A DNA stretch of 45,230 bases, taken from IMG/VR virus record IMGVR_UViG_2718218139_000011. One strand, 5' to 3'. The translations under genes were made by a program, and so were the position numbers. Below the pieces are notes generated by a model, which saw only the letters and a program-made list of their open reading frames with translations, did not search any database and was not told where the DNA came from. Positions 27,421-27,775 of the stretch are shown here, in pieces; the first letter of the stretch is position 1, and each line of letters opens with the position of its first letter. The stretch is from a virus. Taxonomy: Duplodnaviria > Heunggongvirae > Uroviricota > Caudoviricetes.

Positions 27421-27736
27421 GGGATTTTCTCGTCGAAAGATGTGATTAAGAAAGTTGCCGCTAAATGAGCGGCTCTTCGGGTTTGCTTCCGGCTGACTGA
27501 CTGGCGCTGATTTTCTCAGCGGCCCTTTTGTCAATCTGTCTGCGCCAGACGTCACGCATGGCCCGGTATCCACCCGAAAGGAGATACAGCACACAGACCA
27601 CCGTACAGAAGTACAGCATTAACTGGTTCAGAAATGTCATAATTTCTTTCCGTTATTGTTGACAATAAGAACTGTTTTCATTAAAAAACCAGAGTACGAA
27701 AGTATCGTTCCTTTATTTTTTCTCCATAGGTATCAC

Positions 27737-27775
27737 CACCGCCAGCGTCCATTCCTGTCGCTGGCGGTTTTTTTA
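27737..27775 (+). terminator. Strong plus-strand intrinsic terminator
   Basis: Perfect 10-bp stem ACCGCCAGCG/CGCTGGCGGT with 11-nt loop followed by T7 on the plus strand; abuts the nanS-p stop. Confidence 0.6.

Follow-up and report, generated by a model that had tools for sequence, protein, structure and literature searches.

[quoted passage not shown] 2021). Each is flanked by an esterase gene and the late gene that follows it, with the arrangement '> < >', and in EHEC the homologous RNAs are EcOnc51 and EcOnc52 (Pearl Mizrahi et al. 2021). Zhu, Shabalina and Storz (2026 preprint) give the gene order as esterase, PasA or PasC, holin and lysozyme, with PasD/STnc100 upstream of the esterase gene, and report that Esr41 cmscan matches are frequent near PasD. 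They also describe a PasA seed which overlaps the terminator stem of the RNA and a PasA variant without terminator that is a possible pseudogene (Zhu et al.).

The Hfq-dependent RNA Esr41 (EcOnc14; RF02676) of EHEC O157 is encoded by SpLE1/OI-43. It represses translation of chuA, cirA and bfr through base-pairing, acting at the ribosome-binding site in the case of chuA, and its expression in K-12 gives resistance to colicins Ia and Ib. The published compensatory mutation for chuA and cirA, Esr41-M1, changes GGG to CUC within UCUCCAUGGGGUAU according to the mutagenesis primers, while the bfr-specific mutation M2 falls in UUCCCUCCGCC.

The window, by which we mean the whole stretch of 45,230 nucleotides of viral DNA that was analysed (IMG/VR record IMGVR_UViG_2718218139_000011; an E. 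coli prophage), contains a plus-strand unit which fills the gap at 27641-27775 between two minus-strand genes, nanS-p and a gene for a DUF1378 protein. The latter is followed on the late strand by DUF826, holin, YdfR-family, lysozyme and Rz genes. Gene names were taken from an annotated phage record which is 99.8% identical over 27400-27900. The features of the locus are as follows.

27659-27664, plus strand: -35 hexamer TTGACA of the predicted sRNA promoter, read from the sequence
27665-27681, plus strand: spacer of 17 nt, read from the sequence
27682-27687, plus strand: A-rich -10 element TAAAAA, weak and without a T at -7, read from the sequence
27694-27774, plus strand: predicted sRNA of about 81 nt (the window RNA), with a probable start at 27693/27694 and its 3' end in the U-run
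27694-27702, plus strand: 5' segment GUACGAAAG of the window RNA, from the sequence
27712-27733, plus strand: unpaired U-rich region and putative seed core UUUAUUUUUUCUCCAUAGGUAU, with UCUCCAU at 27721-27727
27738-27768, plus strand: terminator hairpin with a 10-bp stem (arms 27738-27747 and 27759-27768) and an 11-nt loop
27768-27774, plus strand: U7 tail (T7 in the DNA; T6-T9 in other alleles)
27776-29713, minus strand: nanS-p, SASA-family sialate O-acetylesterase of 645 aa, from the open reading frame and the phage-record annotation
27461-27640, minus strand: DUF1378 gene of 59 aa, from the open reading frame; first late-strand gene downstream of the sRNA slot

The first-pass annotation had reported a TTGACA hexamer, a 17-nt spacer and a weak TAAAAA element upstream of a perfect 10-bp stem with T7, and all of these can be read directly from the plus strand at 27659-27687 and 27738-27774. 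The arms ACCGCCAGCG (27738-27747) and CGCTGGCGGT (27759-27768) pair perfectly, with eight of the ten pairs being G-C, and the first T of the T7 (27768) is also the last base pair of the stem. Read on the minus strand, the hairpin has A7 before it and GGUGGUGAUACC (DNA) or GGUGGUGAU (RNA) after it. Since only plus-strand RNA carries a U-run after the hairpin, we interpret it, as had been proposed, as an intrinsic terminator for plus-strand transcripts only. The stop codon of nanS-p (27776-27778, minus strand) abuts the T-run of this terminator. A spacing of about 80 nt between promoter and stem had also been given; as a distance this does not hold, the stretch between the -10 element and the stem being about 50 nt and mostly U-rich, but it does match the length of the predicted transcript, 81 nt. 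There is no ATG inside this RNA. Plus-strand RNA from 27694 to 27776 folded at -22.8 kcal/mol (z=-4.7 relative to shuffled sequences) with the seed core left unpaired, and the hairpin of the minus-strand RNA forms equally well (-25.6 kcal/mol). The earlier statement that no plus-strand gene is nearby was borne out, as none was found within approximately 3 kb of the unit, nor was any plus-strand promoter found within approximately 3 kb upstream.

In a window of this size and composition, 0.025 perfect stems of eight or more base pairs with a following T6 would be expected over both strands; two were observed, the other lying at 8170-8201. TTGACA combined with a -10 hexamer of at least 4/6 matches was observed twice against an expectation of 2.4, so that the promoter match alone is at chance level, unlike the terminator. 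With respect to sigma-70, the -35 hexamer is perfect, the spacer is 17 nt, and TAAAAA has the A at -11 and no T at -7. A standard promoter scan did not list the pair at 27659-27687 because the -10 element has no final T. As the hexamer match is itself at chance level, the promoter call was based on conservation among relatives, and the same unusual -10 element without T at -7 is present in the expressed PasC, PasA and EcOnc52 units. A 7-2-7 palindrome, judged by eye with respect to a Fur box or operator, overlaps the -35 hexamer and is only partly conserved.

If the 5' end is set 35 nt beyond the start of the -35 hexamer, the RNA length becomes 78 nt for PasC (79 nt published), 85 nt for PasA (85 nt), 72 nt for Esr41 (approximately 70-74 nt) and 81 nt for the window RNA. 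As this rule reproduces three published sRNA sizes, we infer a start at 27693/27694.

When the region 27000-28300 was scanned permissively against Rfam, the only non-trivial match was Esr41 (RF02676), which aligned end to end to 27699-27776 of the plus strand with 28.1 bits (E=0.0066 for the 1.3-kb search). This score is far below the gathering score of the family, 102 bits; genuine Esr41 scores 108.6 bits, and because this is only about 6 bits above the cut-off, the latter admits little beyond near-identical copies. An intermediate was found in a viral contig (L103), with a score of 47.5 bits. Its unit lies directly downstream of an esterase gene on the opposite strand, with STnc100 upstream of that gene, and this position together with the score indicates that Esr41-type RNAs occupy the esterase slot of phages. 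No esterase or DUF1378 remnants were found beside Esr41 in SpLE1, where they were sought as an indication of the direction of transfer.

Searches in both directions connected the two RNAs. A nhmmer search of the whole window with the Sakai esr41 locus including its promoter gave a sole match, at 27660-27772 of the plus strand (E=0.0042), and a two-sequence profile of Esr41 and L103 aligned to 27659-27773 with E=1.7e-5, the next-best match having E=0.62. Conversely, a covariance model built from window-type alleles only (R1), which aligns to 27694-27775 in the window, was searched in 112 kb and gave 26.7 bits (E=2.8e-4) for true Esr41 in SpLE1 and 24.5 bits for L103. On these reciprocal matches we regard the window unit as a full-length, promoter-to-terminator homologue of the Esr41 gene.

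The position of the unit, between the esterase and the holin and lysis genes and transcribed against them, is that of PasA and PasC. PasC begins about 35 nt past the first base of its TTGACA, ends at the esterase stop codon, and has a terminator, GCCAGCGtcc..CGCTGGC-T7-ATTATGC, nearly the same as that of the window unit. In Sakai, Hfq-CRAC gave peaks at the corresponding slot in Sp4 (EcOnc52) and Sp12 (EcOnc51). The EPEC PP2 locus carries PasA together with another unit, the sequence of which is that of the Sp4 unit of Sakai beneath the EcOnc52 peak. Similarity to PasA and PasC over most of the RNA was not found, only the terminator arms being alignable: the nhmmer matches had E=2.4-8.9 and lay off the locus, and model R1 scored PasC with 12.9 bits (E=0.58). 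For comparison, the similarity criterion of Zhu et al. is a blastn match covering >75% of the query.

Further types of unit at this slot (V2, V3 and V4) were found in viral contigs and in esterase-gene neighbourhoods. Each has its own body, bounded by TTGAC(A/T), 17-18 nt and an A-rich hexamer on one side and by a terminator against the esterase stop codon on the other, the -35 hexamer being TTGACT in V2 and V4. At the -10 position the other slot units have TAAAAA, TAGAAA, TGAAAA or CAGAAA. The distance from TTGACA to the end of the T-run is 107-119 nt in all Esr41-type units and 100-131 nt across the slot units. The gap between the esterase and holin genes is thus shown to be a cassette site, at which promoter and terminator ends are kept and sRNA bodies are swapped between prophages. 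To this phage site Esr41, previously known from SpLE1 alone, is now tied.

A 150-bp region containing the unit was present in 928 of 5426 complete E. coli genomes (17%), at a median of two places per genome and with identities from 100% down to approximately 74%. With a 500-bp query spanning the unit, 307 phage records were matched, mostly Stx1 and Stx2 phages; although most Stx2a phages on deposit carry the unit, it has been neither annotated nor named. In Sakai, the Stx2 prophage Sp5 has a copy with an A-run shorter by one A, for which the predicted RNA would run from about 1272167 to 1272087-1272093 on the minus strand of NC_002695.2. The parts of the RNase E-CLASH tables (Waters et al. 2017) that were available to us hold no entries for the neighbouring genes ECs1209 and ECs1210, and the locus is not mentioned in the text of the StxS paper. 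A full-text literature search for sequence strings of the element, in which supplements are not indexed, found no paper. One prophage that lacks both DUF1378 and DUF826 still carries the unit. A search of 596 Gb of contigs with the pattern TTCTCCAYNGGN{1,3}ATN{4,14}CGCCNGC was too loose to be informative, with at least 120 matches, unrelated among the matches listed.

Eleven representative units, including Esr41, L103 and alleles down to 74% identity, were aligned. Little or no variation was seen in TTGACA, the TTTTCATT(T)AAAAA block, TCTCCA..G, CTGGCG or the T-run. Specifically, TTGACA was invariant in 11/11 units, Esr41 among them, the TTTTCATT(T)AAAAA block was kept in all window-type alleles, TCTCCA..G was invariant across the window type, L103 and Esr41, and in the 5' segment TACGAAAG was retained in most window-type alleles. 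In the terminator stem six of the ten pairs are constant and two have exchanges in both partners, C-G to A-U in L103 and G-C to A-U in Esr41. A further stem change from C-G to U-A was seen by eye in RM10410 and HY220605, where the automatic alignment splits it. In V2 the terminator loop is replaced and the stem kept, and the T-run is always on the plus-strand side of the hairpin. As judged from the aligned sequences, support from stem covariation is modest and support from conservation is strong.

The experimentally mapped seed by which Esr41 pairs with the ribosome-binding sites of chuA and cirA is UCUCCAUGGGGUA. The window RNA has UUUUCUCCAU followed by AGGUAU, where Esr41 has GGGGUAU; AGG thus stands in place of GGGG, and these are the positions mutated in M1. 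The bfr seed UUCCCUCCGCC of Esr41 is not retained. By alignment, the window RNA is seen to retain most of the chuA/cirA seed and not the bfr seed.

RNAduplex energies with the K-12 cirA initiation region, which ignore intramolecular structure, were -33.7 kcal/mol for the body of the window RNA and -34.8 kcal/mol for Esr41. The value of -33.7 kcal/mol was reached by none of 300 shuffled sequences and by seven of 2802 natural 90-nt tiles, four of them from the RNA's own antisense locus, which places it in the top 0.1-0.25% or so. Two helices were predicted. In the first, UCUCCAU.GGUA pairs with cirA -20 to -8 and covers the Shine-Dalgarno sequence, and in the second the 5' segment of the window RNA is a perfect 9-nt complement of cirA +18 to +26. 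Nothing comparable was obtained with PasC or the EcOnc52-type RNA in the same duplex test. Pairing with bfr was not above background for either Esr41 or the window RNA, in a test of limited power which used the K-12 leader, and this differs from the Sakai bfr leader in the published primers. For the cirA ribosome-binding site, the predicted pairing of the window RNA is roughly equal to that of Esr41.

Taking these results together, we read 27659-27774 of the plus strand as a self-contained gene for an sRNA of about 81 nt, a diverged paralogue of Esr41 that points against the late operon and sits in the sRNA slot which lambdoid and Stx prophages retain between nanS-p and the lysis cassette, and we would put the probability of this reading at roughly 0.75. 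The suggestion in the first-pass annotation of a discrete small plus-strand transcript is supported by the homology to Esr41, by the slot shared with PasA/PasC and EcOnc51/52 and by the conservation of the module. The antisense orientation at the junction of nanS-p and the lysis genes, which had also been proposed, stands as well, and what shifts is the probable mode of action; by homology, the RNA would be a trans-acting repressor of the Hfq type with an anti-Shine-Dalgarno seed rather than primarily a cis-antisense regulator. By analogy with Esr41 it probably represses host mRNAs for iron uptake and colicin receptors.

In the mechanism that we propose, host RNA polymerase with sigma-70 would start at approximately 27693/4 in the lysogen and stop at the U-run, and Hfq would bind the 3' hairpin and U-tail of the RNA. 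The body of the RNA is unstructured and U-rich and contains UUUUCUCCAUAGGUAU. The seed, centred on UCUCCAU, would pair with the Shine-Dalgarno regions of host mRNAs, most likely cirA and chuA, and the block in translation would lead to less siderophore and haem uptake and less colicin Ia/Ib entry. As a secondary activity, the RNA may also pair with the late transcript after induction, which is possible because it is fully complementary to that transcript between nanS-p and the DUF1378 gene.

It is this complementarity, directly upstream of the lysis cassette, on which a mainly cis-antisense regulator would depend. Such an RNA would pair with late mRNA and bring about its cleavage by RNase III, would block leak-through into the lysis cassette in lysogens, or would itself be mopped up after induction. 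Every unit in the slot points against the late operon, and in the EPEC RIL-seq data PasA forms chimeras with the 3' ends of both esterase mRNAs. We nevertheless consider a mainly cis role unlikely. The predicted RNA (27694-27774) is confined to the interval that separates the nanS-p stop codon (27776) from the DUF1378 start (27640), and so overlaps neither a coding sequence nor a ribosome-binding site, the DUF1378 start being 54 nt beyond its predicted 5' end. The conserved part corresponds to the trans-acting seed of Esr41, and Esr41 functions in SpLE1, where its surroundings contain neither esterase nor lysis genes. In addition, the bodies of the slot units differ completely while the flanking genes are the same, which would be unexpected for a cis element.

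The unit could also be a decayed or silent relic of a former sRNA cassette, the promoter of which no longer fires usefully in this lineage. The weak -10 element without T at -7 and the PasA variant without terminator would fit this, as would the Hfq-CRAC list of Sakai (63 EcOnc peaks; Tree et al. 2014), which has no peak at the near-identical Sp5 copy and does include EcOnc51 and EcOnc52 in sister prophages. However, promoter block, seed and terminator are kept in hundreds of genomes in alleles that otherwise differ at many positions, the T-run and stem are intact, and the same A-rich type of -10 element serves the expressed PasC, PasA and EcOnc52, and we judge a relic to be quite improbable.

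The first-pass annotation had offered a second possibility, a terminator guarding against read-in. It would be one-way and would shield nanS-p from antisense transcription, there would be no dedicated transcript, and the promoter-like hexamers would be there by chance. The terminator is indeed strong and strand-specific, and the promoter match alone is not above chance, but the 3 kb or so upstream hold no plus-strand gene or promoter as a source of read-in, the invariant TTGACA sits at a fixed distance from the end of the T-run in Esr41-type units, and homologous units are expressed as discrete RNAs of 70-85 nt. We regard a guard function as very improbable. A function of the minus strand, either as a hairpin in the late mRNA with a part in its stabilisation or processing after nanS-p, the hairpin being equally stable there, or as a 32-aa open reading frame (27681-27779, minus strand) whose ATG overlaps the nanS-p stop (ATGA) in a manner resembling translational coupling, is hardly credible, as the hairpin leaves the invariant TTGACA, the polarity of the T-run and the homology to Esr41 outside any late operon unexplained and the frame is 15-41 aa and shifted in other alleles, would be shifted by T-run variation from T6 to T9, and has no ATG in 4/11 units (L156, CP55, L103 and Esr41). 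This open reading frame was rejected as a gene because it is not conserved.

Prophage sRNAs directed against the late operon were already known (AgvB/AsxR, the Pas RNAs, HnrS and Esr41), as was the slot for PasA and PasC. What appears to be new is a widespread unit of Stx phages which is an Esr41 paralogue keeping most of the validated seed, and for which redundancy with Esr41 in EHEC would be predicted. If the unit is expressed, EHEC strains hold at least two sRNAs with the Esr41 seed, which would bear on the interpretation of esr41 knock-outs with respect to iron uptake, colicin resistance, LEE and motility, and repression of colicin and haem receptors becomes a candidate lysogenic-conversion trait of Stx phages. 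A more speculative extension, which we hold to be doubtful as a whole, is that Stx and lambdoid prophages carry a second Esr41-type regulator through which lysogeny rewires iron uptake and colicin Ia/Ib sensitivity via cirA and chuA, the same RNA being consumed by, or gating, late-gene expression on induction. Were this so, the prophage state would be linked to the iron and colicin physiology of the host, and esr41 deletion phenotypes in Sakai and EDL933 would be buffered by the paralogue.

Among the described prophage sRNAs, PasC, PasA, EcOnc52 and EcOnc51 share with the window unit the slot, the antisense orientation, TTGACA with an A-rich -10 element and an RNA of about 65-85 nt, and in PasC and EcOnc52 the likeness extends to the end against the esterase stop codon and to the arms GCCAGCG/CGCTGGC. 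Their bodies, however, are unrelated to the window RNA, with only the terminator being detected by nhmmer and the covariance model (E>0.3), and the seed of PasA differs in sequence from that of the window RNA. AgvB and AsxR are likewise short prophage-encoded RNAs directed against the PR' late transcript, and are Hfq-bound (Tree et al. 2014). Like the convergent sRNA pairs of the prophage moron site, they belong to families in which the 3' part is conserved and the 5' part variable. In contrast to the window unit, all of these lie upstream of the esterase gene, on the STnc100/PasD side, are 51-60 nt in length and are sponges for host sRNAs; neither AgvB nor AsxR was found in the window by the Rfam scan. 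HnrS resembles the window RNA as a terminator-ended sRNA directed against late genes of EHEC and EPEC prophages, and pairs with a ribosome-binding site. It is multicopy, represses hha and sits between the Rz gene and a DUF3950 gene, unlike the window unit, and HnrS (EcOnc10/11/12) was rejected as the identity of the element since it differs in place and sequence and is absent from the window. EcOnc50 (Sp5, about 78 nt) was also rejected, as it maps just upstream of stx2A.

The closest likeness is to Esr41. Both units have TTGACA with similar spacing and a variable 5' part, a common U-rich core, UUUUCUCCAU.GG(G)UAU, and a common terminator, CGCC(A/G)GC..GCUGGCG, with a U7 tail followed by AUCA. 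Their lengths are similar (72 nt for Esr41 and 81 nt for the window RNA). They differ in the -10 element (TATATA in Esr41, TAAAAA here) and in the 5' hairpin, and identity over the 3' 62 nt is only approximately 77%. They also differ in location, the window unit lying beside nanS-p in the late region of a prophage and Esr41 in SpLE1 without esterase remnants.

The OOP RNA of lambda is, as here, a short transcript directed against a phage operon, with its own promoter and an intrinsic terminator. OOP acts through its overlap with the 3' end of cII, whereas no coding sequence lies opposite the window RNA, the conserved part of which is a putative trans-acting seed.

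The promoter of the Esr41-like unit was compared with those of the other sRNA units in the esterase-holin gap, taking in window 27682-27687 and the equivalent position in the comparison loci L003, L005, L002, L103, L362, L376 and L383. Every gap sRNA unit compared contained a consensus -35 hexamer together with an A-rich -10 element lacking T at -7, which took the form TAAAAA, TAGAAA, TGAAAA or CAGAAA. By contrast, TATATA was observed as the -10 element only in Esr41 of the EHEC island SpLE1. We also observed a 7-2-7 palindrome, TTATTGT-TG-ACAATAA (window 27653-27668), overlapping the -35 hexamer of the Esr41-like unit. 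This palindrome, which is retained only in part by other alleles, could be an operator.

Two tandem units were found at the PasA locus of EPEC prophage PP2:

L002 2365-2640, minus strand, PasA locus, two tandem units

The second of these units is identical to the EcOnc52 unit of EHEC Sakai and has its own TTGACA hexamer, while its terminator lies at the esterase stop codon, the position of the published 'minor' 236-nt PasA 3' end. In Sakai prophage Sp5, nanS-p is split by IS629 (L004 4004-5313), although the Esr41-like unit downstream of the split gene is intact. Neither TTGACA nor the GCCAGCG terminator was found in the esterase-holin gap of Sakai Sp10 (L306 2488-2636), where the sole hairpin was a weaker GTGAG..CTCAC followed by T5. 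A recognisable sRNA unit is absent from this gap in some prophages.

Further RNA genes were identified in the window as follows:

8123-8202, plus strand, sRNA gene, PasB homologue (82% identical to the PasB region of EPEC E2348/69 across 156 nt)
29851-30023, minus (late) strand, STnc100 RNA (104.7 bits), just upstream of nanS-p
30796-31042, minus strand, three tRNA genes
42514-42565, plus strand, DicF sRNA (76.7 bits), within this prophage's early region

The PasB homologue is flanked by minus-strand tail genes (4485-7961 and 8208-8888) and contains a perfect 8-bp stem followed by T7 (8170-8201); it is a second sRNA gene in the window opposing the late operon. The three tRNA genes are directly followed by STnc100 and nanS-p, leaving no room for stx genes (29714-31042), and the prophage is stx-less despite the 99.8% identity of 27400-27900 to Stx2a phages. 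STnc100 is related to PasD (Zhu et al.). The esterase gene lies between STnc100 and the Esr41-like unit, an arrangement matching that of PasD2 and PasA in EPEC.
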